Counted from the first letter of the stretch, positions 637 through 19,056 are shown. The stretch is 20,000 nucleotides of DNA from an uncultured virus (IMG/VR IMGVR_UViG_3300014205_009008) (IMGVR_UViG_3300014205_009008), one strand, 5' to 3'. The notes: generated by a model not told the origin, from the letters alone. Program-made: numbers and translations.

Positions 637-1040
637 TGCCAAGTCTAAAACCAAAGCCTCCTAAAGGCTGGACCGCGCACCAGCTAACCAGATTGCCAGC
701 CAAAGGATATTACGTCAGCTACTTTTCCGCAGCTCCGTTCTATACGGCCTATTTCGTAGGAAGCGGAAAATGTGAATACGCAAGATGCCAGCCTACTAAT
801 ATAACTTCTCCTGGTGGAAAGGGATCCACCTTTAGGACTGGGGACTGGCATACGCTGTTGTGGAATTGTGCCCCAACCAAGAAGAAAATCGCAGCATCAA
901 AACTCCTCACCCTAACAGGGAAGTTAGGGCCACATGACGAACAGTTCCACTACTTCAAGGACTACACGGACCTATTAACAGCATGGAATTCCTTCGCACC
1001 ACTATATTCGGCGGTCGCAAAGGCTCCTTCTGACATCTAA
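636..1040 (+). CDS. hypothetical protein
   Basis: 134-aa ORF coupled to the upstream stop by a TAATG overlap; no recognised motif. Confidence 0.7.
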   Translation: MPSLKPKPPKGWTAHQLTRLPAKGYYVSYFSAAPFYTAYFVGSGKCEYARCQPTNITSPGGKGSTFRTGDWHTLLWNCAPTKKKIAASKLLTLTGKLGPHDEQFHYFKDYTDLLTAWNSFAPLYSAVAKAPSDI

Positions 1041-1055
1041 GCTACGCTTAATCCA
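1038..1055 (+). promoter_or_regulatory. hairpin motif copy 1 (TAAGC-TAC-GCTTA), putative phage promoter; predicted +1 at A1055
   Basis: 5-bp inverted repeat with a 3-nt loop, just upstream of the ATG at 1074; one of six intergenic copies. Confidence 0.7.
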
Positions 1056-1073
1056 ATAAACACCGAATCACGC

Positions 1074-2852
1074 ATGAATACCAATTGGAACCTGCAATTG
1101 CTCTATACTGGCATGGATGATCCGCAGATAACAATGGACATCGTAGACTTTGAAAATCAATACATCCAGTTTAACAAGAATTACTCCGGATCAAACCTCG
1201 CAGACAAGGCCACCCTGCTAAAGGCCCTCCAAGATTACACCCGCCTGCTATTTTGCCGTGGGGAGAGGGCAATGATTTATTTCAACTATATCACCGAGCT
1301 CAACAGCTCCGATACAGCAGCGGAAGCAGCCCTCTCGCTCACAACGGAAAGGATCACCAAAGCAAGCAACGAGGTCATCTTCTTTGATCTAAACCTCGGT
1401 AAAATCCCCGCAGAAACCCAGCAGGCTTTCCTGCAGGATCCTGACTTCGCACAATACCGCTATTATTTGGATGGGGTATTCAAGACAGCAAAATACAACC
1501 TGTCAGAAGCCGAGGAAAAGATTATATCACTCAAGGACGGGCCTTCTTACAGCATGTGGGTCAGCGGTCAGGAAAAGCTCCTGAGCCACCAGACAATTAA
1601 CTGGAAAGGCAATATCATCCCGCTCACTGAAGCACAGGAACTTGTTGAATCACTGCCCACAAAAGAACGCCGCAAGCTCCATAAACAGGTAATGGCAAAG
1701 CTCAAATCCGTCAGCGATTTTGCCGAGGCAGAGATCAACGCCGTCTACACCGATAAAAAGATTGATGACGAACTTCGAGGGTTTAAGACCTCCTATGATG
1801 CAACCCTCCTCGAGCACGAAACAACCGAAGACACAGTCTTTGCACTAGTCCAGTCAACGGCTTCAAATATCGCCATTAGTCACAGGTTTTTCAAGCTAAA
1901 GGCCAAACTCCTAGGACTGGAATACCTCACATATGCAGATAGAGCAGTCACCCTGAGCACAGAACAGAAAGAAGTCCCCTTCGAAGCTGGAGTCCAGATC
2001 GTCAGAAAGGCATTTGCTGCAATGGACAGCCAGTTCTCAGACATCTTTGATTCGTATCTAGCCAAGGGGCAAATCGACGTATATCCAAAAAGCGGGAAAA
2101 GTGGTGGGGCATATTGTTCCAGTAGCATCGGCAATCCAACATACGTCCTGTTGAACCACATGCCCGACATGCAGTCAACCGTCACCCTCGCACATGAAAT
2201 GGGGCATGCGATCCACAGCGAGCTCTCAGAATCACAGCCGCCGCTCTATCAAGCCTACACCACCGCCGTCGCTGAAGTAGCCAGCACATTTTTTGAACAG
2301 ATTGTATTCTATAACATGCTCGAAACACTCAGCGTCAAAGAGCAAATAGTGGCCCTCCACGATCGTATCAATCAGGATATCCAGACCACCTACAGGCAGA
2401 TTGCATTCTTCAACTTCGAACTCGAACTTCACCGGACAATGAAGAAGAAGGGGGCGGTATCCAAGGAAGAAATTGCAACCATCCTCAATAAGCATGTTTC
2501 CGAGTACCTAGGGGACAAATTCAAAATGGCGGAAGACGATGGTTTCTTCTTCGTTGGGCTCAGCCACATGCGAGACTTCTTCTATGTCTACTCATACGCC
2601 TATGGCAGTCTGATCAGCAGGGCGATCTACAAGCAATACGCCGAGGACAAGAATGCCCTTGTCAAAATCAAACAATTTCTATCTGCCGGTTGTTCAAAGA
2701 GCCCAGAAGATATTTTCAAAGATATCGGAATCGACATCTCCAAACCAGAATTTTGGGACAACGGCTTCCAAGCAATCGCGGAAGACATCGACAGGCTGGA
2801 AGCATTAATCGCAAACAGCAAGGCGCAGGTCAGCAAATTAGCCCAAAATTAA
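1074..2852 (+). CDS. pepF: M3B family oligoendopeptidase F
   Basis: 592 aa; GKSGGAYC, TLAHEMGHAIH (HExxH), AEVASTFFE and FYVYSYAYG motifs of M3B peptidases. Confidence 0.92.
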   Translation: MNTNWNLQLLYTGMDDPQITMDIVDFENQYIQFNKNYSGSNLADKATLLKALQDYTRLLFCRGERAMIYFNYITELNSSDTAAEAALSLTTERITKASNEVIFFDLNLGKIPAETQQAFLQDPDFAQYRYYLDGVFKTAKYNLSEAEEKIISLKDGPSYSMWVSGQEKLLSHQTINWKGNIIPLTEAQELVESLPTKERRKLHKQVMAKLKSVSDFAEAEINAVYTDKKIDDELRGFKTSYDATLLEHETTEDTVFALVQSTASNIAISHRFFKLKAKLLGLEYLTYADRAVTLSTEQKEVPFEAGVQIVRKAFAAMDSQFSDIFDSYLAKGQIDVYPKSGKSGGAYCSSSIGNPTYVLLNHMPDMQSTVTLAHEMGHAIHSELSESQPPLYQAYTTAVAEVASTFFEQIVFYNMLETLSVKEQIVALHDRINQDIQTTYRQIAFFNFELELHRTMKKKGAVSKEEIATILNKHVSEYLGDKFKMAEDDGFFFVGLSHMRDFFYVYSYAYGSLISRAIYKQYAEDKNALVKIKQFLSAGCSKSPEDIFKDIGIDISKPEFWDNGFQAIAEDIDRLEALIANSKAQVSKLAQN

Positions 2853-3316
2853 TGAGAAGCTCCAAAAGAGAACAGCTCAGGAGGGTTGGTAAGCAACTAA
2901 TCAGAATAATTAAGAAATATTCTCCAAACAAAGATGAGGCTTTAGACGCTACTACACATGTAACTATCATGAGAGAGCTAGGGTTCCGCCGCTCACGCAA
3001 TGGAACCAACGGCGCATGGATCAACAAGCAAAGAGGCTACGTTGTGAAAAGCCCTTACTTATGCTCTTTCGAAGACGGCACTGAAGTTCCAAAGAAAGCC
3101 ATACCAACAATTGTTATTGGCGACAAGAGTTTGGGGCAAATATGGATACAGCCACTTGCGGATACATCTACCGAAGCCGTCCGCAAAGCACGCAAAATAA
3201 TCGTGAAAGGGGAACGCAAATGGGACCCTGAAATGTTTATGAGACATTGGGGTAAAGATGCCCATACCCAAAACATAGGGCTATATAAAAGCAAGCCAGT
3301 GGTTTTTGACTGGTGA
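2852..3316 (+). CDS. minimal protein-kinase-like protein
   Basis: Start placed at ATG 2852 (TAATG coupling) rather than 2690. Motifs YVVKSP, DAHTQNIG and PVVFDW resemble the kinase VAIK, catalytic-loop and DFG motifs. Confidence 0.6.
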   Translation: MRSSKREQLRRVGKQLIRIIKKYSPNKDEALDATTHVTIMRELGFRRSRNGTNGAWINKQRGYVVKSPYLCSFEDGTEVPKKAIPTIVIGDKSLGQIWIQPLADTSTEAVRKARKIIVKGERKWDPEMFMRHWGKDAHTQNIGLYKSKPVVFDW

Positions 3317-3329
3317 ATCATCGCGGATT

Positions 3330-3346
3330 AGGCTACGCCAAATACA
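3330..3346 (+). promoter_or_regulatory. hairpin motif copy 2 (AGGC-TAC-GCC), putative phage promoter; predicted +1 at A3346
   Basis: GGC/GCC stem with TAC loop, intergenic, before the ATG at 3362. Confidence 0.65.
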
Positions 3347-3361
3347 TCCAGAAACAGTAAC

Positions 3362-3835
3362 ATGATCGAAGCAGTTCTCTATTGTGACGCAAGTGTCAAA
3401 GCTGGTTTTTGTGGAATTGGTCTCTGCCTGTTGGACCTAAACGGAAACCTTATCAAAAAACAGAGCCGCCGCCTTTCAGATCGCGGCAAAAATAACACCG
3501 AGGGAGAGGCAGCAGCCATCATCGAAGGTATCAAACTGGCTCAAAAGCACGGCTTTTCCAGCATCAGGATCTACACTGACAGCAAATCGTTGGTTCAAGT
3601 TGCAAACAGGGGCAAAGGTGGGACTAAGATGACCCGCAAATTTGTGAAGGCACTCAGCACTCTCAAAAATCTTATTGCCATCAGCATCAAATGGGTCAAG
3701 GGTCACTCCGGCCAGAAATGGAATACACTCTGTGACAAACTCGCCCGCAACGCAAGCTGGTCAATCACAGACCTCATCACCATCGGGTTCAACAGGCTCT
3801 GCGGTAACTGGGATGTGCCCGGTGCACTCGTTTAA
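3362..3835 (+). CDS. rnhA: ribonuclease HI
   Basis: YCDAS, NNTEGE, IYTDSK and WVKGHSG..WNTLCDKLA supply the D-E-D-H-D catalytic set. Confidence 0.88.
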   Translation: MIEAVLYCDASVKAGFCGIGLCLLDLNGNLIKKQSRRLSDRGKNNTEGEAAAIIEGIKLAQKHGFSSIRIYTDSKSLVQVANRGKGGTKMTRKFVKALSTLKNLIAISIKWVKGHSGQKWNTLCDKLARNASWSITDLITIGFNRLCGNWDVPGALV

Positions 3836-3838
3836 TCA

Positions 3839-4261
3839 GTGAAGAAATCACTCTTCGGTCAGGCTCTAGCAATTGCTAACAGGGAATTGCGCAGCCACCC
3901 AGAATTCAGGCACTACCTGCACTGGAGTTTTATTGTCCGCAAAAACCAGATTATCGAATGGGCCACCAATCATAAATCTCCTCCTCCAATCCAGTTTGGC
4001 TACAGCAGCCAAATCAACAACGCCGAGGCCAAAACCCATTCCGAGTTTGCTGCCTACCGCAGGGCCAGAGGAATCCTGAAAGGCTCGTTTGAAGTCATTA
4101 ACATACGACTTAACAGAAAAGGGGACATGCGCAATAGCGCTCCCTGCAATTGCTGCCAAAATTTCTTGGAAGCCGCCGGATGCGCAAAGGTCTGGCATTC
4201 TACAAACGAAGGCGAATGGCTCAAGGCCACACCAAGCTGGCTACCAGAATTTTCAGAATAG
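3839..4261 (+). CDS. Zn-dependent cytidine/CMP-type deaminase family protein
   Basis: HSE (HxE) and SAPCNCC (PCxxC) motifs; GTG start. Confidence 0.8.
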   Translation: MKKSLFGQALAIANRELRSHPEFRHYLHWSFIVRKNQIIEWATNHKSPPPIQFGYSSQINNAEAKTHSEFAAYRRARGILKGSFEVINIRLNRKGDMRNSAPCNCCQNFLEAAGCAKVWHSTNEGEWLKATPSWLPEFSE

Positions 4262-4326
4262 TTGTCATAATATCCAAAGGCAATAGCCATGCCTGTCGCT
4301 AGCTGTGGGGAAAACATAAATTCGCC

Positions 4327-4773
4327 ATGAAGCTACAAGACCAAATTACCGCCGATATCAAGCAGGCCATGTTGTCCAAGGATACAAACGCCCTAGGCGT
4401 GCTCCGGATGCTCAAGTCCACCCTGACCAACCTTGCCATTGAAAAGAAGACCCAAGAATTGGATGACACCATAGTTCTCTCTGCCGTGCGCAAGAACATC
4501 AAAACACGCCAGGACTCGGTAGATTGCTTCACCAAAGGTGGCAGGCCAGAGCTGGTTGAAAAGGAGCAATCCGAAATCGCCATCCTCGAAAAATACCTAC
4601 CTGTTCAACTAGCAGAATCAGAACTCGTTACCATCATTGACGATGCCATCAAGGAAGTAGGTGCAACATCCAAAAAGGACATGGGAAAGGTCATGAAGGT
4701 TGTCAGTGCCAAGGTAAACGGCGCCGCCGATGGTAAAACCATAAGTGCACTGGTAGGCAAGAAGCTGATGTAA
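4327..4773 (+). CDS. yqeY: GatB/YqeY domain protein
   Basis: Typical YqeY pattern: L...I..D.K.AM..KD...L..LRMLKS, GRPEL..KE..EI..L..YLP.QL and KDMGKVM; 148 aa. Confidence 0.92.
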   Translation: MKLQDQITADIKQAMLSKDTNALGVLRMLKSTLTNLAIEKKTQELDDTIVLSAVRKNIKTRQDSVDCFTKGGRPELVEKEQSEIAILEKYLPVQLAESELVTIIDDAIKEVGATSKKDMGKVMKVVSAKVNGAADGKTISALVGKKLM

Positions 4774-4775
4774 CC

Positions 4776-5135
4776 ATGAGCATGCCAACCACATTACGCG
4801 AGCTGTCAGAGTTAATTGCCACACACAAGATAATCGTACACTCAGACGGACAAAGCGAACTTCTCGCACGAGCTACCTACTGGCAGAACGATAGTGGCTG
4901 GTACATTGTAGACAATGTTACAAATATACCACCTGAGTTGTCTTCCGACAGAATGGATCTTTTCTGGGCATATAGCGATAGACTATGCACCACTTCAGTT
5001 AATACCAAAGTTCTGCAGGATGCGAAATCACTCAGTCCTAGCGAGCTAATCAATTTTGTTCTAGAGCTAAATACCGTAACCAACAAAGGACTGCCCGATG
5101 GCACAATCCGTCTGGAATTTATACCGCTCGCATGA
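4776..5135 (+). CDS. hypothetical protein
   Basis: 119-aa ORF in the operon, with an ATGA overlap to the next gene. Confidence 0.7.
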   Translation: MSMPTTLRELSELIATHKIIVHSDGQSELLARATYWQNDSGWYIVDNVTNIPPELSSDRMDLFWAYSDRLCTTSVNTKVLQDAKSLSPSELINFVLELNTVTNKGLPDGTIRLEFIPLA

Positions 5136-5590
5136 TCCTTTTCATACCACCATTGCAAAGTAAAATCGCCTTAGCGTCACCGTGGACATTCACGCTAAAG
5201 GCCGACTACGAGAACCTCTCATTTATCGAAACAATGGTACAACAAGGGATCATAGACGAATCAGCACTTCTAGCCCTAAAGAATAGCATCTCTCCAAGCA
5301 GGTATACATCCCCAATGAGGAAATACAATTATCATGTATTCCTAACAGACCTAGTAACAGTAACATTACCTGCGGGCTCATATCTTAAGGTAGAAGCAAT
5401 GAGCATGAAGCCGCAAAAAACTGCATTTAGGAGCATATCACTACGCCTGCTGAAGACTCCAACCATGGACTGGAAAAATGCCCGCTTCAAAATAAACATC
5501 GAATACCTCAACACGATGGACATCAAGCCACCAACCATCGGCCCAGCACCAATACCGGCAACCACAACCATACACGCAAATCTATGCTAG
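5132..5590 (+). CDS. hypothetical protein (phage-type)
   Basis: 152 aa, coupled. The LFIPPL...WTF.L and VTLPAG..LKV pattern recalls uncharacterised large-phage proteins (from memory, not a search). Confidence 0.7.
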   Translation: MILFIPPLQSKIALASPWTFTLKADYENLSFIETMVQQGIIDESALLALKNSISPSRYTSPMRKYNYHVFLTDLVTVTLPAGSYLKVEAMSMKPQKTAFRSISLRLLKTPTMDWKNARFKINIEYLNTMDIKPPTIGPAPIPATTTIHANLC

Positions 5591-5754
5591 ACAAAGCTAT
5601 CGACGGAACCGACAAATTGCCAGCACTCATGGCAAAATTCACACTTGCAACCACCCAGAAAGAGCGCGATGCCCTTGCGGCAGAGATGGACCGACTCAAT
5701 GCTGAAATAGACGACGACATCATCGATTCAATCTATGGAGGACGCGAAGCATGA
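5584..5754 (+). CDS. small hypothetical protein (56 aa, not in ORF track)
   Basis: MLDKAIDGTDKLPALMAKF...DSIYGGREA; fills the gap and overlaps both neighbours (ATGA at 5751-5754). Confidence 0.7.
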   Translation: MLDKAIDGTDKLPALMAKFTLATTQKERDALAAEMDRLNAEIDDDIIDSIYGGREA

Positions 5755-6155: not shown

Positions 6156-6158
6156 ATC

Positions 6159-6587: not shown

Positions 6588-6589
6588 AT

Positions 6590-6826
6590 ATGTTACCAAT
6601 AGCAACAATTATCGTCATTTCATCTTGGATGGCACCAGCCGCTGTCACCGTTCTAGCAGGGCTTCTGGTAGCAGTAGTAGCAGCCTTGGAATATAGATCA
6701 TTCCGAAACAGCGCCAATTCCGGTTGGCTCGCAGGTGTGTTCACATTCTTCGCACTTATCACAGCCGTTATAAGTATATTAGTTGCCTGGGGAGTTTGGC
6801 TGGCAACTATATTCTTGGGACGTTAA
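6590..6826 (+). CDS. small membrane protein
   Basis: ATG at 6590 follows the previous stop; 78 aa with 2-3 hydrophobic segments. Confidence 0.65.
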   Translation: MLPIATIIVISSWMAPAAVTVLAGLLVAVVAALEYRSFRNSANSGWLAGVFTFFALITAVISILVAWGVWLATIFLGR

Positions 6827-8212
6827 TCAAAAGAGATCCATCTCGGGTCGTTCATCAACCTCAACAAGAGAGTTTATGCATCTTATATGTTCTAGATGTG
6901 CCTCCCACCAGGTTTTACCGCCGCGCAACGGCTTGTCTAAGTCCCTTTTATAACTATCCGGAACAAGCAGGCTTGTAGGTATACGGTGCAAATATCCATT
7001 GTCTGCAGCCAGCTGCATAACATTACGCCCCCACGATACATCTACTTCGGCAATATTTTCAACAGTTAACAAACTACCTAAAAACTCATCATACCCGTCA
7101 TCCTTGGATTGTGCCCCTATAGCCCATGCCAAAACGGAATGCCCACCTTCAGCATTAGGCGGAGTATCAAGAAGGGATAGAACCTCAGGGGTTAATAACT
7201 CCCTTGGTATTTGGTTCAAACATCCAGCGGATGCCGCCTCATGATAAACAGTATACCACTTGTTACTAAGGCGCATATTCTCATCGGTCAACAATTCCTT
7301 TGGTGCACGATCTAAGCACGAATGCTGAGCCAGTGTGTGTAAAACTGTAGAACCATGTTCATCTACCCGCCTGTAATCATCCAGTTTTAACAGCCCCTCG
7401 GGTAGTCTGTTTAAATAGCCCGTAGCAGCCAGCTCATGTAACATATTTGGAGCCCCAGACAGTATTTTCTCAAAATTACGGGCAACATAGCCATTTGGTA
7501 ACTGGTCAAGTTCTCCAAACATCACCAAACTCTGAAAAGCTGTTGTTCCACGAATATTTCTCAATAGCAGATTAGGAAGGTTAATGCACTCTGGTGGTAA
7601 TTCCTTAATCCAGCCCAGACCAATCATTTCATGGAATACCGTAGCCCCAGCTGCGTCCGTCTTGCTAAAGTTTTCGTTAGTCAATATATGCAGTGGTAAG
7701 TTGTGAATATTACCATACATTGCTGCCTGCCTAAAGCAGGTAGGTTTTCCAGGAATTTCCTCATTAAGGTACCGCGATGTAATCAGATCACTAGGGGCAT
7801 GATCCCAGCCAAACTTAGCAGCCTTACTTAACACCTCGTAGCCCATATCAGTAAGTGTAGCATCTGGTTGCAAAAATAGCTCTGCAGGAAGTTGCCCAGC
7901 CTTCCCAAGTCTCACAGCATGATCCAAAACGGTCTGCAGCTCAGTATAGGGTTCGTTAAACAAAGCCCTTGTCATGGACTCCTTTGGCACCTGCGCTATT
8001 TTATCATTCGAAATCATCGCGGCCATAACCGTCACACCAAGAGCATCTCTCAAGCCCAAATTTTCCTCAGTCAGAGCCCAATCGGGAATTACAGCATCAG
8101 GGTAACGTGCATAATTATGTAAGGTTGTAGAGCCTGCAAAGTCACGCCGAACCCAATATTCAGGGTCCTCAGGCGTAGGTCCAAACAACAATTCCCTTAG
8201 TTTCTTAAGCAC
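6827..8212 (-). CDS. ankyrin-like repeat protein, long type (ends PEMDLF)
   Basis: Degenerate repeats such as TVLHTLAQHSCLDRAPKELLTDENM; paralog of 16460-17863. Confidence 0.8.
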   Translation of the reverse strand: MLKKLRELLFGPTPEDPEYWVRRDFAGSTTLHNYARYPDAVIPDWALTEENLGLRDALGVTVMAAMISNDKIAQVPKESMTRALFNEPYTELQTVLDHAVRLGKAGQLPAELFLQPDATLTDMGYEVLSKAAKFGWDHAPSDLITSRYLNEEIPGKPTCFRQAAMYGNIHNLPLHILTNENFSKTDAAGATVFHEMIGLGWIKELPPECINLPNLLLRNIRGTTAFQSLVMFGELDQLPNGYVARNFEKILSGAPNMLHELAATGYLNRLPEGLLKLDDYRRVDEHGSTVLHTLAQHSCLDRAPKELLTDENMRLSNKWYTVYHEAASAGCLNQIPRELLTPEVLSLLDTPPNAEGGHSVLAWAIGAQSKDDGYDEFLGSLLTVENIAEVDVSWGRNVMQLAADNGYLHRIPTSLLVPDSYKRDLDKPLRGGKTWWEAHLEHIRCINSLVEVDERPEMDLF

Positions 8213-8217: not shown

Positions 8218-8247
8218 ATTATAGCACCAGCATAATGGAAAAGGCAA
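8218..8247 (-). promoter_or_regulatory. sigma70-like promoter, predicted leaderless
   Basis: TTGCCT-18-TATAAT (extended TGc), 5 nt before the GTG at 8212. Confidence 0.7.
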
Positions 8248-8454: not shown

Positions 8455-8471
8455 GCAAAAACATAAATAAC

Positions 8472-8743: not shown

Positions 8744-9145
8744 ATGTACAAGAAACCAATATATTGCGTCGGACTAGCCCACAACTTTGGTCGCACAGGC
8801 GAGTTTTTAGGAGCATCAATGCGCTACGCAGGATTCGTACAGGTAAGGTGGGACGGGGAGAACAGGTCAGTACAGCTCCAAAGAAAAGATATCATCATGA
8901 CCTCCACGCTTGAGCGACCAACTGCCTATGTGGACCGCGCTAAATGCATTCCAAGTACGCAGCGCAAACACAACTACCCAAAATCAAGGAAACCTGCCAG
9001 CTCATTTAGCCTCTTCTCAAAATCCAAGCTCCGATGCCAGAGCAAGTGTTCAGCGTCAGGAACGCCATGCCAGAAGCGCAAAGGTCATAAAGGAACACAT
9101 TCTGGATGGATATACAAGTGGGGGAAAAAGCACTCACGCGCATAA
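8744..9145 (+). CDS. basic hypothetical protein with possible C-terminal Cys/His metal site
   Basis: CQSKCSASGTPCQKRKGHKGTH near the C-terminus. Confidence 0.6.
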   Translation: MYKKPIYCVGLAHNFGRTGEFLGASMRYAGFVQVRWDGENRSVQLQRKDIIMTSTLERPTAYVDRAKCIPSTQRKHNYPKSRKPASSFSLFSKSKLRCQSKCSASGTPCQKRKGHKGTHSGWIYKWGKKHSRA

Positions 9146-9149: not shown

Positions 9150-9179
9150 TTGACTAGCCGAACTAAATAGCGCTAGAAT
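9150..9179 (+). promoter_or_regulatory. sigma70-like promoter, predicted leaderless
   Basis: TTGACT-18-TAGAAT, 5 nt before the ATG at 9185. Confidence 0.75.
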
Positions 9180-9184: not shown

Positions 9185-9874
9185 ATGCCAGCTACCGAAA
9201 GTTTCCTATACAAAGCGGCAAGATTAGGGGAGCTAAACAAACTCCCCACTGAGGCACTGCTAGCCAGTGATTTTCTGGCTACGGATAAAGAAGGATTCTC
9301 CACCATCCACATAGCTGCGATATATGGACACTTGGACCAAGTTCCGCCCAGGTTCGTTACAGCAGAAAGCCTAGACCAGCAAGCAAACAACGGAAACACT
9401 GTTTTGCACTATGCTGCTAATTATGGCCAGCTTTACCTGATCCCAAAAGAACTACTAACTGTCGAACGGCTATCCGTCATAGGTCAGATCAAAAGAACAG
9501 TATTCCATTGGGCTGCCCGCAATGGGTTTCTTGACCAGATACCACCAGAATTACTTACCGCTGATAACCTCCTAGTCAAAGATCGTGGCGGCAAAACACC
9601 TGTATATCTTTCAGCTCGAAGCGGATATCTAGAACAAATACCAAGAGATATACTCACCACCGAAAATCTGCTAATTAAAGCTCACCACGGAATGAACGCA
9701 CTGGACGAAGCAGCACATGGGCGCAATGCCAGCCTGTCACCACTCGTGGGCATAAATTTGGAAGTTAACGATAAAGTACGAAGAATCCTGGGTGACGAAT
9801 GGCTTGAAAAGAATAACAGGGTGTGTCATACATTGAAGCCACAATCAGAAGACAGTCACATGGATATATTCTAA
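9185..9874 (+). CDS. ankyrin-like repeat protein (ends SHMDIF)
   Basis: 33-aa repeats such as TVLHYAANYGQLYLIPKELLT. Confidence 0.88.
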   Translation: MPATESFLYKAARLGELNKLPTEALLASDFLATDKEGFSTIHIAAIYGHLDQVPPRFVTAESLDQQANNGNTVLHYAANYGQLYLIPKELLTVERLSVIGQIKRTVFHWAARNGFLDQIPPELLTADNLLVKDRGGKTPVYLSARSGYLEQIPRDILTTENLLIKAHHGMNALDEAAHGRNASLSPLVGINLEVNDKVRRILGDEWLEKNNRVCHTLKPQSEDSHMDIF

Positions 9875-9877
9875 GCC

Positions 9878-9907
9878 TTGACCAATCCAGCTCAAATAGG
9901 CTAGTAT
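9878..9907 (+). promoter_or_regulatory. sigma70-like promoter, predicted leaderless
   Basis: TTGACC-18-TAGTAT, 5 nt before the ATG at 9913. Confidence 0.7.
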
Positions 9908-9912
9908 TACGA

Positions 9913-10623
9913 ATGGTAAAGGAATCGCCGGTATACGATAAGACATATATCCTTGAGGCAGCAAGGCTGGGAGAAATCGACCAAATCCCCAAACATATTC
10001 TAACCCAAGAATATCTCACAGTCAAAGGATTAAGCGATGTCACACCACTACATTGGGCTGCTGAAAGTGGATGTCTGGATCAAGTACCAAGCCAGTTTTT
10101 GACTGCACAAAATCTGTTAACTAAAGATTCCAGCGGTCGATCACCGCTACACTGGGCTGCAGAGTGCGGGCAACTCAATCAAATTCCTACCTCACTCCTA
10201 ACAGCAGAAAATTTACAAATCAAAGACAAAGATGGCAATTGCTCATTACACCAAGCAGCAGCAAATGGGTACTTGGGGCAATTACCAATAGAAATACTAA
10301 CTGACAGCAATTTGTTATTACATAATAGGGATGGTATTACTCCTTTGGACTGGGCTGCGTATTATGGGCATATACACCAAATTCCGCGTTCTGTCCTCAC
10401 ACCAAAGAACCTCCTTCATAAAGATAATTTTGGACTCTCGCCACTACAGAGGGCCGAACAAAAAGGTCACCTTGATGCCCTGTTAGGAATTAAATTTGAG
10501 GATACCAAAGAAATACGGGACATAGTTGGGGACTGGTATGATAAAAATATACAATTTATAAAAGACCAGAATCTAACCGCGTATGTGAAAGAGGATGAGG
10601 CTCAAGAAATAGACATATTCTAA
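9913..10623 (+). CDS. ankyrin-like repeat protein (ends QEIDIF)
   Basis: TPLHWAAESGCLDQVP-type repeats. Start moved from 9823 to ATG 9913, which removes the overlap and fits the promoter. Confidence 0.88.
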   Translation: MVKESPVYDKTYILEAARLGEIDQIPKHILTQEYLTVKGLSDVTPLHWAAESGCLDQVPSQFLTAQNLLTKDSSGRSPLHWAAECGQLNQIPTSLLTAENLQIKDKDGNCSLHQAAANGYLGQLPIEILTDSNLLLHNRDGITPLDWAAYYGHIHQIPRSVLTPKNLLHKDNFGLSPLQRAEQKGHLDALLGIKFEDTKEIRDIVGDWYDKNIQFIKDQNLTAYVKEDEAQEIDIF

Positions 10624-11384
10624 TGATACCCAACCGTCAAAATTCGTTACGCAGGATTCGCCTATCTTCCCACATATTTTCAACAGCGTCTATCCAAGAA
10701 AGCGAAGCAAGTATCGCCTTACATGCCGCCGCCTCCTCAGGCACCTTAGACAAAATTCCAAAAGTCTGGCTGACAGCATCAAAACTCCGAATTCAAAATA
10801 AAACCGGTGAAACCGTCCTTGCAGTTGCCGCAAAGCACGGACACCTGGATCAAATACCAGCAAAGTTCCTAACCTCCTCAAATCTTCTCGTACCAAACCA
10901 ACACGGCCACACCGCATTTCATCAGGCCGCAGATAGTGGGCACTTAAATCAGTTCCCCATCAAATTACTGACTTCGGCCAATCTCCTAAAACGTAACTAT
11001 TGGGGAGGAACAACACTTCATATGGCAGTAGCCAAAGGGCACTTAGATCAAATACCAAAGAAGTTACTCACAATTGTAAACCTACTTAAGCGCACTAGAA
11101 CCGGAGATACCATTATTCACAGGGCAGCCTCAACCAACCACCTACATCATACCCCCAAGCAATATATAACCGAAGCAAATCTCCTCATGGAAAACAGCGA
11201 ACGGCAAACTCCCCTGCACCTACTTATGCGATTCGGAGCACCAGATCAGTTACATGACGTAGAACTATCGCCAGCCGTCGTTCCAATAGTTGGAGATGAG
11301 TGGTACTCAAGGTACCTGGAACGAAAGAAGAGCTTGGACACACTAGAGCCAGCAGTGAATACAAATGAACTAGATATGTTCTAG
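10623..11384 (+). CDS. ankyrin-like repeat protein (ends NELDMF)
   Basis: TVLAVAAKHGHLDQIP-type repeats; coupled to the upstream paralog by TAATG. Confidence 0.85.
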   Translation: MIPNRQNSLRRIRLSSHIFSTASIQESEASIALHAAASSGTLDKIPKVWLTASKLRIQNKTGETVLAVAAKHGHLDQIPAKFLTSSNLLVPNQHGHTAFHQAADSGHLNQFPIKLLTSANLLKRNYWGGTTLHMAVAKGHLDQIPKKLLTIVNLLKRTRTGDTIIHRAASTNHLHHTPKQYITEANLLMENSERQTPLHLLMRFGAPDQLHDVELSPAVVPIVGDEWYSRYLERKKSLDTLEPAVNTNELDMF

Positions 11385-11400: not shown

Positions 11401-11419
11401 CTAAGCTACGCTTAGCCCA
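11401..11419 (+). promoter_or_regulatory. hairpin motif copy 3 (CTAAGC-TAC-GCTTAG), putative phage promoter; predicted +1 at A11419
   Basis: 6-bp stem, intergenic, before the ATG at 11437. Confidence 0.72.
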
Positions 11420-11436: not shown

Positions 11437-11727
11437 ATGAAACTTTCTGAGGTCTCCAACCGTTCCATCGCACTTTTACTCGCAGCCTTCGACCAAGATG
11501 CCGAAAACGGCGGATTTACTAGCTTCCCACAAGCACCAGAACAGGTGAGTGAGGACTTTGTTGCCGCATATGAGCATGCCTCCCGAGAAGCCCTTATCCA
11601 AGATCTTTCAGTACACCTCGATCAAGAGATCAACGAGGACAGCGAAGTCGAAAGCTTCATTCCCGAAATTGGGGAAGATCCTGTAAATTTCCTCATTCTG
11701 GCGAACGGGCCGGAAGTAGAGATCTAA
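11437..11727 (+). CDS. small acidic hypothetical protein
   Basis: 96 aa with 21 D/E versus 3 K/R. Confidence 0.75.
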   Translation: MKLSEVSNRSIALLLAAFDQDAENGGFTSFPQAPEQVSEDFVAAYEHASREALIQDLSVHLDQEINEDSEVESFIPEIGEDPVNFLILANGPEVEI

Positions 11728-13201: not shown

Positions 13202-13359
13202 TCAAATTTTATTGGTATACAGTCATCAACAGTCCACAATATTTTGCCAGTGTAAACCCACTAGAACTTATGCTGTCATCGAACCATCTTAAAAATCTAA
13301 CCCATCAAACCTTAAAAGTCAAGGGGTGTTTTAAAACTTTTCTACACACCTCAAATAGA

Positions 13360-13377
13360 CAAGCTACGCTTGAATTA
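13360..13377 (+). promoter_or_regulatory. hairpin motif copy 4 (CAAGC-TAC-GCTTG), putative phage promoter; predicted +1 at A13377
   Basis: 5-bp stem, intergenic, before the GTG at 13399. Confidence 0.7.
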
Positions 13378-13398
13378 TCAAACTCATAAACACAACCT

Positions 13399-13542
13399 GT
13401 GAACAAGATTTCCATCAAGCGACTGACCAGAACCACCGATAGCAAGCGCGGAGCTTTCACTTTCCACTCAAAAATCAAGGGTCGCAACAAAGTTCTCGCT
13501 CGGCGTCGCAGCAGAAGGGTCATCAACAACCTCGAAGATTAA
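13399..13542 (+). CDS. small basic protein (47 aa, not in ORF track), weakly bL34-like
   Basis: MNKISIKRLTRTTDSKRGAFTFHSKIKGRNKVLARRRSRRVINNLED; lies between hairpin copy 4 and the next ATG, which is 3 nt after its stop. Confidence 0.6.
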   Translation: MNKISIKRLTRTTDSKRGAFTFHSKIKGRNKVLARRRSRRVINNLED

Positions 13543-13545
13543 GGG

Positions 13546-13845
13546 ATGAAAACACTTACACGCATTGAGGTTAATCCAAGCGGGGACGGATACCTTTCAA
13601 TCTTCCTCAACGGCAATCTGTTAATCCATGGCGACGACTACCATGACAAGATACGCGATCAGTACAATGGCATCAAGGCATACCTGGAACACGTGGGGGA
13701 AAAGTTCAAAGAAGAGAAAATCGCCTTGGACGTAAAGACTGGAGACCAAGAATGGTCGGATTACGATTACATGCCAGATACCGAGGAAACCCTCGACGAA
13801 TACCTCACCAAGATGAAGGAAAACTTTAAACCAACAAAACCATGA
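13546..13845 (+). CDS. hypothetical protein
   Basis: 99-aa ORF with an ATGA overlap to the next gene. Confidence 0.75.
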   Translation: MKTLTRIEVNPSGDGYLSIFLNGNLLIHGDDYHDKIRDQYNGIKAYLEHVGEKFKEEKIALDVKTGDQEWSDYDYMPDTEETLDEYLTKMKENFKPTKP

Positions 13846-14102
13846 CCGAATTCCAAAAAATCCGCAGGTTCACAGGCACAAAAAAGCACGCCGAAACACA
13901 CGTATTTCTCCAGTGCAGAGATAACCAAGGAACAGTAGAAGTTGGTGAATTGGCTACCTACACCAGCCCATCTAGTTGGGTCGACGTTCTGGATATCACA
14001 AAACTCGGCCCCTTTATCGAGGAAATCCCTTGGGAATCCGAGCAGGACGAAACCAGCTTCAAACAAGCACAGGAAGCTGAATACCGAAAAGCCCTAAGGT
14101 AA
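13842..14102 (+). CDS. hypothetical protein
   Basis: 86-aa coupled ORF. Confidence 0.7.
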   Translation: MTEFQKIRRFTGTKKHAETHVFLQCRDNQGTVEVGELATYTSPSSWVDVLDITKLGPFIEEIPWESEQDETSFKQAQEAEYRKALR

Positions 14103-14193
14103 TGGATTCGAAACGCCCAGAAATCGGAAAAATCCTGTAACATTCCATTGGTTGTAGATGCGATATCTCTTACTGCAGGGCATTCACATTACT

Positions 14194-14210
14194 AGGCTAC
14201 GCCCCAAACA
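14194..14210 (+). promoter_or_regulatory. hairpin motif copy 5 (AGGC-TAC-GCC); predicted +1 at A14210
   Basis: 3-bp stem, intergenic. Confidence 0.55.
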
Positions 14211-14234
14211 TAAAAAGGTATAGCAAGTAATAGT

Positions 14235-14264
14235 TTGCAAAAAGTACACAAGATCTGTTAATAT
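14235..14264 (+). promoter_or_regulatory. sigma70-like promoter, predicted leaderless
   Basis: TTGCAA-18-TAATAT (extended TGt), 5 nt before the ATG at 14270. Confidence 0.65.
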
Positions 14265-14269
14265 ATTGT

Positions 14270-14461
14270 ATGCATAAAGTAAAATACATCGATTTTGCTG
14301 AAATTCAGAGAAAAAAGGAAGTGTCGCGGGCACTCGATAATATGCTTGTTGCACAAGGCCAGCTTAAGGAAGTAGAAATAAAAAACAACCTGCTAGGACG
14401 ATTGCAGATAGATACTGGTCGCCTCAAAATGCCATTTAAACGCGCCCGGACATTATGGTAA
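14270..14461 (+). CDS. small basic hypothetical protein, possible partner of the downstream NTase
   Basis: 63 aa with its own promoter; overlaps the next gene by 7 nt. Confidence 0.55.
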   Translation: MHKVKYIDFAEIQRKKEVSRALDNMLVAQGQLKEVEIKNNLLGRLQIDTGRLKMPFKRARTLW

Positions 14462-15321
14462 CGCATACGCCGGATACCATCAAAAAAATAGCTGCACTGG
14501 CAGCGAAAGCAGGATTGGTTATCGTAGGTGGACAAGCTGTCAACACATGGAGCCTGAAGTACTATACGGAGAATACGGATCCTTGGGACAGTCTTAAACC
14601 TTTTACCAGCGACGATTTAGATTGTGTAGGAGACGCCAGTAAACTACACGCATTTGTGGAGCTCTTAAACAAGGAGTATGATGTAACAGTCACGCTACCA
14701 GCAAATGCCGAAGAGGAAAAAATAAACACAGCAGTTATAGAAATTTCAAAGGGAGATTTCTATTTAGGCGTGAATTGTCTTAAAAGTATACTTGGTGTAG
14801 AAACCGAAGATATTACCAGAGGTGCTGTGGCCACAGACGGTAACATGGCCTTGGTGTTACACCCGCTGCTTTGCCTGCAATCAAAATCTCATAACCTCGC
14901 AACTTTAGACCAATCTAATAGGCAGGATGAAAAGCATCTTCGTTTGTCCATTGCAAATCTGCACTCTTTTCTTAAAGAGCAGGAGTTGTCTGTTGAAGAT
15001 GCCGAGCTATACGTGGAGAAAATCACTGAAAAGGCAAGTTTGAATACCTACTTGCAACGCAGCTATAATGTCAACTGTGTGGATGCTTTACCATTGGAAG
15101 AATGGAGTAATAGCAGCAACGAAAGAATGCGCGCTCTTGCAGAAATTGGCAAAGAAGCACACAAAAAGGTTCAGCTTGCGGCAGAGAAGGAAGTAGCAGC
15201 AGAAGAGTGGTTAAGGCAACTTAATCCAAATCCATTTAAGCGTAACAAAGGGATAGGGTTTTTGTCAAAATTCAAGGACCTACCATCCAAAGTCGAAGAG
15301 TCACAGCAGCCAGAAATATAA
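14455..15321 (+). CDS. DNA-pol-beta-superfamily nucleotidyltransferase-like protein
   Basis: VIVGGQAV..W followed by FTSDDLD fits the hGG...[ST]xDhD signature of AbiEii-like NTases. Confidence 0.65.
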   Translation: MVTHTPDTIKKIAALAAKAGLVIVGGQAVNTWSLKYYTENTDPWDSLKPFTSDDLDCVGDASKLHAFVELLNKEYDVTVTLPANAEEEKINTAVIEISKGDFYLGVNCLKSILGVETEDITRGAVATDGNMALVLHPLLCLQSKSHNLATLDQSNRQDEKHLRLSIANLHSFLKEQELSVEDAELYVEKITEKASLNTYLQRSYNVNCVDALPLEEWSNSSNERMRALAEIGKEAHKKVQLAAEKEVAAEEWLRQLNPNPFKRNKGIGFLSKFKDLPSKVEESQQPEI

Positions 15322-15451
15322 TTTGGGCCGATCGGGTTGAAAAAACCTGAAGGTGGGCCTTGGAATAATAAGAATAAAAACTTAAACTCCTTGCACTCTG
15401 GCAATTTAAATAACATTGTCCGATAATTTGGTACTAGGAGCAGGTAACTCT

Positions 15452-16369
15452 CTAAAATATATCCATCCCCGTATGTTCACCATCCTGCACAACAAGATGT
15501 TGCTTGGCTTTCAACACCTTTTGGTTCCTTTCCCACCAATCATTGCCAACTATGTTTTTACTAGATACGAGAAGCTCCAACCCTAACAACTGATCCAAAT
15601 GCCCCTGATGAGTCGCGCAATGTAAAGGTGTCATACCATCGTTATCCCCAACCATTAGATTAATACCCGTAAGAACCTCCATCGGAATCTGATCCAAATG
15701 ACCATATTCAGACGCATAGTGCACAGGTGTTAGACCAATACTATTTTTTGACATCAGACTTGCTTCTGTAAGCAATGCCTTGGGCACCAGATCCAACTGA
15801 CCATGCTCAGCTGCATAGTGTAAGGGGGTATAGCCAGAGGCAGAATTTGCCACCAGAGTAGCTCCAGTAAGTAGATCCCTAGGAATCTGATCCAAATGAC
15901 TGGTCGCAGCCGCATAGTGTAAGGGCGTGCTGGCATCGGAATTCTTCAACATCAAATTTGCCACTGTAAGGACCTCCCTAGGCACTTGATTCAAATGTCC
16001 ATACTCTGCAGCGAAGTGCAAAGGTGTTTGACCAAGGTCATCTTTGACTAACAGGTTAGCTTCTGTAAGAAATTCCCTAGGAACCTGATCCAAATGTCCG
16101 GTCGAGGCCGCAACATGCAACGGAGTAAACTCATCACTATTCTTTACCAACAGATTAATTGCAGTAAATAATTTGTTAGGAATATAATCTAATTGGCCCT
16201 TTTCTGCTGCCCAGTGGAGTAGGATGCTACCAGAAGCATCCCTTACCAATAGAGTTGCTGGAGTCAGCAACTCTATTGGCACAAGCTCCAATTGACCCCT
16301 AGCCGCATAGTGCAACATATACTGGACCGACATTTGCCGCCCTTTCTTACTAAATTTGGCCTTTACCAT
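15452..16369 (-). CDS. ankyrin-like repeat protein (ends TGMDIF)
   Basis: About 8 regular 33-aa repeats, TPLHxAAxxGHLDQhPxxhLTxANLhxKxxxG. Confidence 0.92.
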   Translation of the reverse strand: MVKAKFSKKGRQMSVQYMLHYAARGQLELVPIELLTPATLLVRDASGSILLHWAAEKGQLDYIPNKLFTAINLLVKNSDEFTPLHVAASTGHLDQVPREFLTEANLLVKDDLGQTPLHFAAEYGHLNQVPREVLTVANLMLKNSDASTPLHYAAATSHLDQIPRDLLTGATLVANSASGYTPLHYAAEHGQLDLVPKALLTEASLMSKNSIGLTPVHYASEYGHLDQIPMEVLTGINLMVGDNDGMTPLHCATHQGHLDQLLGLELLVSSKNIVGNDWWERNQKVLKAKQHLVVQDGEHTGMDIF

Positions 16370-16374
16370 AACAA

Positions 16375-16403
16375 ACTATAGCATAGGACTCCTCGAAAAC
16401 CAA
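16375..16403 (-). promoter_or_regulatory. sigma70-like promoter, predicted leaderless
   Basis: TTGGTT-17-TATAGT (extended TGc), 5 nt before the ATG at 16369. Confidence 0.65.
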
Positions 16404-16459
16404 ACTCGAATCAGAAAAAACCCTCGATGATGCCACAATGGAGCAAGCAACTATAACGC

Positions 16460-17863
16460 CTAAAATATATCTATATCAGGCGTTTCCACCTGAGAAGTTA
16501 GAGAGTTAATAATACGCATGTGCTCAACATGCGCGTCCCACCAAGAAGAACCATCTGGCAAAGGGACATCAAGAAACTGTTTATAACTATCAGGTACTGG
16601 AAGTGTAGTTGGAATTCTGGCTACCTTACCTCTAGTAACAGCCACTTCCATTATATTCTTACCCCATCCAATATCCTGAACAGCTAAATTCTCTACAGTT
16701 AGAAGGCTACCTATAAACTCATCATATCCAAACTCCTTTGAGTTCGCGCCAACAGCATAGGCCAAGACTGAATGTCTCCGACTCCATCCTTGGTCAGGCC
16801 TATCTAAAAGTCCAAGTATTTCTGCTGTTAATAAATCTCTAGGTATCTGGTTTAAACACCCACCCATAGCAGCAGTATGGTAAACCGAAGAACCAGCACT
16901 AACCAAACGAAGATTCTCATCAGTTAGTACTTCTGCTGGTAAGTTGCGCAATTTTCCATGCTCTGCCGCTACATGAATTACAGTAGCCCCCGCACCATCC
17001 CGCCGAAGATAATCAGGAGCCGTAACTAAACCAGAAGGCAACCGATCTATTCTATCTAATGCAATAAGGTTGTGCAAAATATTCTTATCGCCAGCCAATA
17101 ATATGTCGAAATTTTTCTCTATAAACCCTGCTGGGAGATACTTCAATTCATCAAAGAAGCATAACTGCTGAAAAACAGTCTTATGATGATGATTCTCTAT
17201 AAGCAAATTCTCCACAGTGAAACACTCCACAGGCAAGTCCTTAACAAACCCCAACCCAATCAAGTCATGGAATATTGGAGTGCCAGAAGAGTCGCACGTA
17301 GCCAAATTTTCGGTAGTTAAAAGGTGTAGAGGTAACTTTGTAATGCCGCCATACTTGGCAGCTTGTCGGAAACAAGACTCCATGCCCCTATAATTCTCAT
17401 GCAGATGCTGCGACGTAATAAGCCCAGCCGGTGCAGTTGCAAGAGTCCCATGTTTTGCTACACGGGACAGAACCTCATAGCCATAATCATTAAGACCTTC
17501 ACCATGCTCAAACAACCTTACAGGCAGCTGTGAGACATTACATGAATCCACAGCATGCTTTAGCACAGTAATCTCACAATTATTATGTCTAGGCAGATCA
17601 AAAAGCGCCGCAGTCAAAGACTCAGCAGGCACATCGCCAACTCTACCTGCATTAATTATATCATAAATAACCGGCACGCCCTGATTATTTTTGATCATCA
17701 AATTCTCTTCAGTAAGAACGCCAGCAGGGATTTTTGTACCCACAACCCTTGGATCACTACCACACAAATGCAATAAAGTATTACCATATTTATCCTGCCC
17801 AACCCAAAATTCTAGGTCATCCTTGCTAGGGCCAAAGAACCAATTACGCAATTGTTTGAGCAT
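16460..17863 (-). CDS. ankyrin-like repeat protein, long type (ends PDIDIF)
   Basis: Colinear paralog of 6827-8212. Start set to ATG 17863 because MLKQLRN matches MLKKLRE and fits the promoter spacing. Confidence 0.82.
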   Translation of the reverse strand: MLKQLRNWFFGPSKDDLEFWVGQDKYGNTLLHLCGSDPRVVGTKIPAGVLTEENLMIKNNQGVPVIYDIINAGRVGDVPAESLTAALFDLPRHNNCEITVLKHAVDSCNVSQLPVRLFEHGEGLNDYGYEVLSRVAKHGTLATAPAGLITSQHLHENYRGMESCFRQAAKYGGITKLPLHLLTTENLATCDSSGTPIFHDLIGLGFVKDLPVECFTVENLLIENHHHKTVFQQLCFFDELKYLPAGFIEKNFDILLAGDKNILHNLIALDRIDRLPSGLVTAPDYLRRDGAGATVIHVAAEHGKLRNLPAEVLTDENLRLVSAGSSVYHTAAMGGCLNQIPRDLLTAEILGLLDRPDQGWSRRHSVLAYAVGANSKEFGYDEFIGSLLTVENLAVQDIGWGKNIMEVAVTRGKVARIPTTLPVPDSYKQFLDVPLPDGSSWWDAHVEHMRIINSLTSQVETPDIDIF

Positions 17864-17868
17864 TCTCA

Positions 17869-17898
17869 AGACTACCACATATGCCTGTTACCAAGCAA
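17869..17898 (-). promoter_or_regulatory. sigma70-like promoter, predicted leaderless
   Basis: TTGCTT-18-TAGTCT (extended TGg), 5 nt before the ATG at 17863. Confidence 0.6.
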
Positions 17899-17913
17899 CC
17901 ATAACCATGCATG

Positions 17914-17943
17914 TTGCCTTTACCAACCATAGTCCTTTATAAT
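17914..17943 (+). promoter_or_regulatory. sigma70-like promoter, predicted leaderless
   Basis: TTGCCT-18-TATAAT, 5 nt before the ATG at 17949; divergent from the previous promoter. Confidence 0.75.
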
Positions 17944-17948
17944 ATGGT

Positions 17949-18692
17949 ATGCTTAACCTACATGAAGCAGCTAGAACCGGACAGTTAAACCTTGTACCGT
18001 CTAACATTCTGGCCGAAAACCTGCAGTTAAGAAATGTCGAAGACTTTAGTGTCCTAGACATCGCAGCATCTAATGGACATCTTGAACAAATTCCAGCAGC
18101 TCTACTAACTACCGCAAATATGACATGTTTTGTGGGTAGCACATTGAATGACCCTGATGTCATGATTTCCCCTATTCAGAGAGGTATAGCAAACTTCCTT
18201 TCACACTTCAAGCGCAACCGGGAAAATACTCGAGTACTACCTAAACAGTTTAGGAAATACGAACACCCAACAAAACAAACGCCAATGCACTATGCAGCAA
18301 GGCACGGCCATTTGGACCAGTTACCAAAAGAGGTACTAACTGTTGAGAACATGCTGGTTGATGATATTGACAACTGGACTCCCTTGCACAAGGCAGCTGC
18401 TTTTGGGCATTTGGATCAAGTTCCCGTGGAAATCCTTACAAACCCACAAGCATTGTTTAAAAAGCGACGCCTTGAGATAGATGATTTATTTACCGGTGCA
18501 ACAGTGTTGGATACTGCAGTCGAATACGGGAACCTCCAACAGCTGTTTGGCGTAGATTTGCCCATAGAGTGCAGAGAAATAGTTGGGGATGAGTGGTTCA
18601 ACAATAATCAAGAGCATATTGCAGCAGTAAGAAAGGCAAAAGGTACAATTACAGAGGAAGTTCCTAAAGAACCGGAAATAGAGTTGTTCTAA
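17949..18692 (+). CDS. ankyrin-like repeat protein with loop insertion (ends PEIELF)
   Basis: TPMHYAARHGHLDQLP and TPLHKAAAFGHLDQVP repeats; IVGDEW cap. Confidence 0.87.
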   Translation: MLNLHEAARTGQLNLVPSNILAENLQLRNVEDFSVLDIAASNGHLEQIPAALLTTANMTCFVGSTLNDPDVMISPIQRGIANFLSHFKRNRENTRVLPKQFRKYEHPTKQTPMHYAARHGHLDQLPKEVLTVENMLVDDIDNWTPLHKAAAFGHLDQVPVEILTNPQALFKKRRLEIDDLFTGATVLDTAVEYGNLQQLFGVDLPIECREIVGDEWFNNNQEHIAAVRKAKGTITEEVPKEPEIELF

Positions 18693-18714
18693 CAGCCGCC
18701 TAAACAAGTTTAAA

Positions 18715-19032
18715 GTGAAAATAACTATCAAGCCAAAACCCAAAGCATTCAAAGTCTACAAGAATATATTCAAAATCACCATAAAAACAATGGTGGGGGA
18801 CGCAGACGCGTATGAAACGATAGATTACTACCTAAAGAAATCCGAGGAAGTTCTCAAGGACTATTCCTTCATCTCCGATCACGAACTAGACGGCAAAGCA
18901 ATAGCAACCTATTTTAAAGGAGATTGGCCAAGAGATCCATATAATGGAATACCAAACACCGTCGATGATATACAGATCACATGGTTCGACCAAAATGGAA
19001 TAGAGCATGACACAGCCATAACAAACGACTAA
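18715..19032 (+). CDS. hypothetical protein
   Basis: 105-aa ORF with GTG start. Confidence 0.7.
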   Translation: MKITIKPKPKAFKVYKNIFKITIKTMVGDADAYETIDYYLKKSEEVLKDYSFISDHELDGKAIATYFKGDWPRDPYNGIPNTVDDIQITWFDQNGIEHDTAITND

Positions 19033-19039
19033 AAAAATA

Positions 19040-19056
19040 AGGCTACGCCTATAACA
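19040..19056 (+). promoter_or_regulatory. hairpin motif copy 6 (AGGC-TAC-GCCT), putative phage promoter; predicted +1 at A19056
   Basis: 4-bp stem, intergenic, before the ATG at 19088. Confidence 0.68.

Follow-up and report, generated by a model that had tools for sequence, protein, structure and literature searches.

What reads the short palindromic motif that recurs between the genes of an uncultured virus, and is it read as a sequence or as a hairpin? The motif is the heptamer GCTACGC, found in a 20,000-nt stretch of DNA (hereafter the window, given as one strand) from the uncultured virus IMGVR_UViG_3300014205_009008. An earlier sequence-only reading had picked out six intergenic copies as hairpin promoters with the geometry of those of coliphage N4, recognised by a polymerase that the element encodes. 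Judged from their sequence and placement, the six intergenic sites are most likely element-specific promoters. We put at about one half the probability that they are, more narrowly, N4-type promoters whose core would be offered to a phage-encoded polymerase in the form of a template-strand hairpin. We infer all three parts of this reading: the start of transcription at the sites, the hairpin and the enzyme that would read it.

Occurrence and placement of the GCTACGC motif

Our own gene calls placed 31 open reading frames (ORFs) on the plus strand and 4 on the minus strand, leaving 1,314 nt (6.6%) of the window intergenic. GCTACGC occurs seven times, always on the plus strand, against an expectation of 1.15 from dinucleotide-preserving shuffles, none of which (0 of 200) reached seven copies. 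Six of the seven (1041, 3332, 11405, 13363, 14196 and 19042) are intergenic by these gene calls, and all six are co-oriented with the next gene. These are the positions and the orientation that the sequence-only reading had given, and the check it proposed on strand and intergenic bias came out as expected within the window (7/7 copies on the plus strand, 6/7 intergenic). It had missed the seventh copy (8823..8829, plus strand), which falls within the ORF 8744-9145. The flanks of this copy do not pair in register, and the G-rich sequence after it sets it apart from the other six sites. Because about one chance copy is expected, we treat this one as probably a chance occurrence and do not count it as a promoter. 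Among the matches listed by a literature search for the motif strings, all were unrelated primers.

The six intergenic sites align without gaps. Their invariant positions are those of the heptamer, an A two bases ahead of it, an A 8 nt past it and another A four bases beyond. The first of the two downstream As stands 11 nt from the centre of the predicted loop in all six sites (1055, 3346, 11419, 13377, 14210 and 19056) and is preceded by C in five sites and by T in one, confirming the pyrimidine-A (YA) that had been reported at this distance. Given the local composition (45% A), a YA shared by 6/6 sites at any one of 29 offsets would arise by chance with a probability of about 0.002. We also searched the window for template-strand triloop hairpins that have a G-N-A loop, are closed by G-C or C-G and contain no fewer than 3 pairs. 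Nineteen were found, and the only intergenic ones were the six GCTACGC sites, in which the G-N-A loop is present on the template strand only.

With the conserved A taken as the predicted first transcribed base (+1), four sites lie close to the start codon of an ORF of at least 50 amino acids (aa). A1055 is 19 nt ahead of the ATG at 1074 (M3 oligoendopeptidase), A3346 is 16 nt ahead of the ATG at 3362 (RNase HI), A11419 is 18 nt ahead of the ATG at 11437 (the first of three small ORFs), and A19056 is 32 nt ahead of the ATG at 19088. The earlier claim that five sites fall 16-32 nt from a start codon stands for these four. A fifth distance in this range, the 22 nt from A13377, is obtained only with a 47-aa ORF that starts with GTG (13399-13542), the next ATG (13546) being 169 nt away, and the sixth site (A14210) is 60 nt ahead of the ATG at 14270.

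Four of the sites are also found 0-20 nt past the stop codon of an upstream plus-strand gene, as would suit a GC-UAC-GC hairpin in read-through transcripts, acting in processing or stability or bound by an antiterminator or other RNA-binding protein. A constant loop and constant closing pairs with a variable outer stem are also typical of protein-bound RNA hairpins. However, the site at 13363 lies in a divergent intergenic region, has no upstream plus-strand gene and heads a plus-strand unit, which argues against a 3'-end or terminator role. No U-run follows any of the sites on the plus strand, the stems are too short for RNase III, Rfam and tRNA scans of the window returned nothing, and an RNA element would leave the YA at its fixed downstream distance without a role. 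None of the six sites scored as an intrinsic terminator on the plus strand (the reverse of the site at 13363 was weakly flagged), and terminator-like sites are not enriched in the window (18 versus 21.2 in shuffles). On this evidence we consider an RNA element improbable.

The template-strand reading

Promoters of N4 contain a GC-rich heptamer centred at -11 between inverted repeats, with a sheared -10G:-12A pair (PMC4496689). The N4 polymerase contacts -8G, -9C/-10G and -11G, and a ruler places +1 eight nucleotides downstream of -8 (PMC4496689), a numbering with which an oligonucleotide printed in PMC13492108 is consistent. The G at -11 is described as critical, or a purine as needed there (PMC13492108; PMC3715699). 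A scan of the N4 record over its first 12 kb gave GCTYCGC at 93, 562 and 4551, all on the plus strand. On the non-template strand the N4 promoters P1 to P3 read GTTGC-TTC-GCAAC, AGAAGC-TCC-GCTTCT and AAGCTGC-TCC-GCAGCTT, and each heptamer is followed by 7 nt and then by G, making +1 the eighth nucleotide. The N4 geometry that the sequence-only reading had given was correct, and the N4 record, with GCT[C/T]CGC and +1 8 nt on, is closer to the window sites than that reading had stated.

Read on the template strand, all six window sites give G(-8), C(-9), G(-10), T(-11), A(-12), G(-13) and C(-14), and the conserved A falls at the ruler position; the sites therefore share six heptamer bases and the spacing with N4. 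Each of the six has a GC-NNN-GC heptamer centred at -11 with inverted-repeat flanks, and each has, at the level of sequence, a template-strand G-N-A triloop with -10G and -12A together with -8G and -9C.

If the sites are N4-type promoters, a template-strand mini-hairpin with the core GC-GTA-GC at -14 to -8, usually 1-4 pairs longer, would be bound in its extruded or single-stranded form, as by the N4 virion RNA polymerase (vRNAP). The reader would be a polymerase encoded or modified by the element, most likely a single-subunit one, and it would need a pocket that takes T rather than G as the central loop base. Initiation would take place at the conserved A, 8 nt past the heptamer and 11 nt from the loop centre. 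We favour presentation as a hairpin because the core bases contacted in N4 are kept, apart from the T at -11, because the G-N-A loop is confined to the template strand, and because the consensus is still palindromic past the core.

The template core had been assigned to the d(GCGNAGC) type of mini-hairpin, and it does belong to that published class, whose members are extra-stable for all four N, with melting temperatures of 76 C (A), 73 C (G), 71 C (C) and 70 C (T) (PMC13037366). Hairpins of the GCGNAGC type are also described at replication priming sites (PMC13037366), and the window sites could in principle be single-strand initiation or priming signals, comparable to the primase or origin sites of phage G4 and plasmid ssiA. 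Such a function, however, gives no reason for a placement that is intergenic only, co-oriented with genes and 16-60 nt before start codons, or for a YA at promoter distance, and we find it hardly probable at all.

Stems of the six sites

The stems are exactly those listed in the sequence-only reading (TAAGC/GCTTA, GGC/GCC, CTAAGC/GCTTAG, CAAGC/GCTTG, GGC/GCC and AGGC/GCCT), with 5, 3, 6, 5, 3 and 4 perfect pairs in sites 1 to 6, including the two core pairs. The first flanking pair is complementary in all six sites, as A-T in three and as G-C in three. Each of the next two pairs is complementary in four of the six, including one T-A to C-G double change at the third pair of the site at 13363. 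Two sequence subclasses were apparent, TAAGCTACGCTT (1041, 11405 and 13363) and TAGGCTACGCC followed by ACAT (3332, 14196 and 19042).

All six sites are on the plus strand, and the energies given here are for folding of the template strand. In the TAAGCTACGCTT subclass, site 1 (1038..1055) forms the stem-loop TAAGC-TAC-GCTTA (1038-1050; 5 pairs, -2.2 kcal/mol), to which the stop codon TAA of the ORF 636-1040 contributes. Site 3 (11401..11419) forms CTAAGC-TAC-GCTTAG (11401-11415; -4.1 kcal/mol), and site 4 (13360..13377) forms CAAGC-TAC-GCTTG (13360-13372; -3.5 kcal/mol), which 1 of 200 shuffles matched and which has C-G instead of T-A as its third flanking pair. Among the TAGGCTACGCC sites, site 2 (3327..3346, with ACAT) has the perfect stem GGC-TAC-GCC (3331-3339; -2.4 kcal/mol), which can be lengthened to 7 pairs (3327-3343) by allowing one A.A mismatch; its folding was equalled by 2 of 200 shuffles. 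Sites 5 and 6 combine TAGGCTACGCC with AACATAAA: site 5 (14195..14210) has the 3-pair stem GGC-TAC-GCC (14195-14203; -1.5 kcal/mol), and site 6 (19040..19056) has AGGC-TAC-GCCT (19040-19050; -2.2 kcal/mol).

The octamer AACATAAA was observed in four copies, all on the plus strand and all intergenic (4313-4320, 8460-8467, 14207-14214 and 19053-19060). Two of these span the predicted +1 of sites 5 and 6, while the other two have no upstream hairpin and lie 6 and 4 nt ahead of the start codons at 4327 and 8472. The count by itself is not significant (4 versus 1.47 expected; 15 of 200 shuffles). The 47-aa product of the ORF 13399-13542, downstream of site 4, is very basic, and the ORF stops 3 nt short of the ATG at 13546. 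We considered a relationship of this product to ribosomal protein L34 and rejected it, as no Pfam match was obtained at E up to 1.

Weighing the hairpin reading

Several observations count against N4-type promoters. The template base at the loop centre is T in 6/6 sites, as had been noted, where N4 has a purine. Three of the six stems have only 3-4 uninterrupted pairs; the N4 range of 5-7 pairs is reached perfectly by three sites, and the site at 3332 gets to 7 with a mismatch. Folding energies of the template strand (-1.5 to -4.1 kcal/mol) compare with -3.7 to -6.7 kcal/mol for the three N4 hairpins, and site 5 folds no better than 65 of 200 shuffles. The earlier claim that the stems co-vary was overstated: the two types of first flanking pair and the one further double change stand, but the covariation score of the six-row alignment (0.248, shuffled mean 0.166) was reached by 53 of 500 shuffles and is not significant. 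In addition, the division into A-T and G-C at the first flanking pair coincides with the two subclasses and therefore may reflect a single event. The six sites are spread across 18 kb among opposite-strand genes, unlike the three of N4 in its first 4.6 kb. The window ORFs searched (Pfam, PHROGs and NCBIfam) yielded no polymerase, sigma factor or N4-like gene. Among the loci compared (peptidase and 288-aa protein families) no relative with the motif was found. Finally, the geometry of the motif is not specific to N4, and the non-template bases T-12, A-11 and G-14 (6/6 sites) and T-7 (3/6) would also fit an odd extended -10 element.

This last point bears on whether the sites are a linear, single-block promoter of 11-13 nt, TA[A/G]GCTACGC[T/C], which is read as duplex or melted sequence and whose dyad symmetry is incidental. 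Its reader could be the host core polymerase with a phage sigma-like factor, in the style of T4 late transcription, or a phage multisubunit or other polymerase. The four non-template bases together with the conserved YA and a +1 that stands seven to eight nt past -7 fit a sigma-type geometry, no conserved -35-like block lies upstream, and the short stems and weak covariation are as expected of a linear signal. The weak protein matches of the window indicate very large phages, and some very large phages encode their own multisubunit polymerases. On the other hand, a G+C-rich block at -14 to -8 melts poorly, and a linear signal leaves unexplained both the palindromic consensus, which continues three positions past the core, and a first flanking pair that is complementary in 6/6 sites through two pair types. 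Six of the seven heptamer bases, moreover, equal those of the N4 hairpin core. We regard a linear promoter as rather unlikely.

A second promoter class at the ankyrin-type genes

Promoters of a different kind were observed ahead of ankyrin-type genes. Upstream of genes 8212(-), 9185(+) and 17949(+) comes TTGCCT or TTGACT, then N18, TATAAT or TAGAAT, and N5 up to the start codon. These sigma-70-like promoters (8218-8247, minus strand; 9150-9179 and 17914-17943, plus strand) end 5 nt ahead of the start codon and are among the six best sigma-70-like sites (10/12) of the window. On the minus strand, TATAGT (16375-16380) lies five nt ahead of the ATG of gene 16369(-), and TAAAAT (13206-13211) lies four nt ahead of the ATG of gene 13201(-). 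No Shine-Dalgarno sequence was found at any gene in the window, and the mRNAs from the sigma-70-like promoters are apparently leaderless. The GCTACGC sites have neither -35 and -10 hexamers separated by 16-18 nt nor a conserved block upstream, and a search past the hairpins for a -10 box of host type gave none. Host-type promoters thus seem to serve the ankyrin-type and PEP-CTERM genes, and GCTACGC sites the other plus-strand units. The sigma-70-like promoters at the ankyrin-type genes indicate that two promoter classes coexist in the element, as in two-polymerase phages.

The coexistence of two classes also bears on a duplex operator, in which a dimeric regulator of these operons would bind the inverted repeat TAAGC-N3-GCTTA. 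The dyad symmetry suits such a role, and the positions overlap the location expected of a promoter. Yet the asymmetric centre, TAC, is oriented alike to the downstream gene in 6/6 sites, three of them have half-sites of only 3-4 bp, and none is accompanied by a separate -10/-35 promoter, though such promoters are obvious at the ankyrin-type genes. We judge an operator very improbable.

Seven ankyrin-type paralogues were identified in the window (6827-8212, minus; 9185-9874; 9823-10623; 10623-11384; 15452-16369, minus; 16460-17878, minus; and 17949-18692). Their C-termini share the pattern [D/E]-[I/L/M]-[D/E]-[I/L/M]-F (MDLF, MDIF, IDIF, LDMF, MDIF, IDIF and IELF), and a module containing GDEW or WW is found about 25-35 residues before this acidic-hydrophobic tail. 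The shared tail may be a sorting or binding signal. For the 472-aa ankyrin-like protein, the sole match among 5.8 billion proteins was its own paralogue.

The carrier element and its likely host

No DNA match for the window was found among 50,697 phage records. Proteins of the window itself are recorded on contigs of 74,669 bp and 115,752 bp, and a single DNA run, labelled as landfill metagenome, carries the window at an even depth of about 14-16. The family searches covered 31 ORFs against Pfam and PHROGs, 25 against NCBIfam, and 5 further small ORFs against Pfam. Most ORFs are small, densely packed and without a family, and the recognisable ones encode the M3 oligoendopeptidase, two RNase H-like proteins, a YqeY protein, the seven ankyrin-type paralogues and a PEP-CTERM protein. 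Weak PHROG and tblastn matches led to proteins of very large phages. Genomes of the Schitoviridae are about 60-80 kb, and the carrier does not resemble a member of that family in its lack of a phage DNA match, in its weak matches to very large phages or in the 115,752-bp contig. The element is probably a fragment of a large uncultured phage, the alternative being a plasmid or other element.

A segment at least 85% alike to positions 19814-19873 (about 60 nt) recurs in two other long contigs of that run (40,937 and 28,772 bp), at the same depth of about 14-15. The segment is probably repeated within a single genome, with the assembly breaking at this point. The 140-aa product of the ORF 3839-4261 had no match in Pfam, PHROGs or NCBIfam and contains the pattern H-S-E ... 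P-C-N-C-C, which we take to be reminiscent of the zinc site of cytidine/dCMP deaminases.

A 288-aa protein (14455-15321) without a Pfam family has 444 representatives in the protein library. Genome loci of its family are mostly from Verrucomicrobiota, followed by Cyanobacteria and Planctomycetota, and this distribution, together with the PEP-CTERM tail, suggests a host of the PVC type. None of 80 genome loci and 1 viral locus of the family had a comparable motif pattern. The protein has invariant GGQ..N..W and S/T-x-D-x-D motifs, by which it looks like a minimal nucleotidyltransferase, and one of 18 aligned family members weakly matches DUF6036 ('nucleotidyltransferase'). A protein fragment (P0123) is 88% identical to the 288-aa protein, indicating that a close relative of the element exists somewhere.

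The gene of the M3 oligoendopeptidase F (1074-2852) appears to be a host-like one that the element carries. Its closest named proteins are of Patescibacteria type (at most 58% identity), and two further sequences, P0002 (70%) and P0003 (63%), are nearer. Nine metagenome relatives of the peptidase (43-51% identity) had no other gene in common with the window and showed no enrichment of the motif.

We also searched 401 sampled genomes of the likely host phylum for TARGCTACGCYN5YA. The pattern was present in 42 of them, with at most 3 copies each, and a reversed control pattern was commoner; the motif does not serve that phylum as a general signal. Its absence as a host signal, along with the second promoter type, fits an element-specific transcription signal. 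An 18-nt identity to site 1 in one genome (G350) was set aside as an isolated chance match, with no protein similarity around it.

Implications and comparison with known promoters

As far as we found, hairpin promoters have been described in the literature only for N4-like phages. If the N4-type reading is true of a phage without detectable N4 kinship, recognition of DNA mini-hairpins would be a wider strategy than thought, and the hairpin core would be a promoter module that is ancient or has been invented more than once. The T at -11 would then define a new specificity, belonging to a polymerase with a new -11 pocket, and the motif would offer a simple way of annotating transcription units in uncultured phages. 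The two promoter types in one element also lead to a hypothesis on which genes go to the host polymerase. Tentatively, and with the odds somewhat against it, we suggest that mini-hairpin promoters extend beyond N4-like phages to an unrelated phage of at least 115 kb, probably with a host from the Verrucomicrobiota/PVC group, that uses pyrimidine-centred GC-GTA-GC hairpins, in exactly the -11/+1 geometry of N4, with a polymerase of its own and leaves the ankyrin-type genes to the host.

Like late promoters of the T4 type, the window sites have a single block around -10, no -35 element, and T-12 and A-11 on the non-template strand. Unlike those promoters, the block is G+C-rich and palindromic.

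The template sequence GCGTAGC belongs to the d(GCGNAGC) mini-hairpins, among whose four forms the one with N = T has the lowest stability (PMC13037366); this class is defined by structure and not by function. Phage LUZ7, compared here by description, has nine early transcription start sites with hairpin stems of at least 4 bp, and its middle promoters are GC-rich hairpins as well (PMC9163698). Its vRNAP serves early genes, and a second, small phage polymerase, RNAPII, which acts with Drc at middle promoters, also uses GC-rich hairpins (PMC9163698). The LUZ7 figures differ from those of N4, so that the known family of hairpin promoters is not uniform in number, stem length or spacing. The window resembles LUZ7 in having several putative hairpin promoters in one genome and shares features of its hairpins (stems of at least 4 bp and a 3-nt loop), but in LUZ7 the start is a G and the hairpin centre is 13-14 nt away (about 15 nt at middle promoters), whereas the predicted start here is an A at 11 nt (PMC9163698).

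N4 itself provides the closest comparison, through the promoters P1 to P3 of its virion RNA polymerase (gp50, Schitoviridae). The two differ in the central template base (T in the window, G in N4 with A in P1), in the base at +1 (A versus G), in the run of T at -4 to -1 that the window sites lack, and in the stems (3-6 perfect pairs versus 5-7). They differ as well in the carrier, an element with a protein on a 115,752-bp contig and no N4-like gene in the window, as compared with an N4 genome of 70,153 bp. The heptamers, in contrast, are identical at six of seven bases (GCTACGC versus GCT[C/T]CGC), both are flanked by inverted repeats, and in both a purine that follows a pyrimidine stands as start or candidate start exactly 8 nt past the heptamer. 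Lacking the purine at -11 and reaching the N4 stem length in half of the cases, the window sites are not members of the N4 family, but they match its early promoters in core and geometry.

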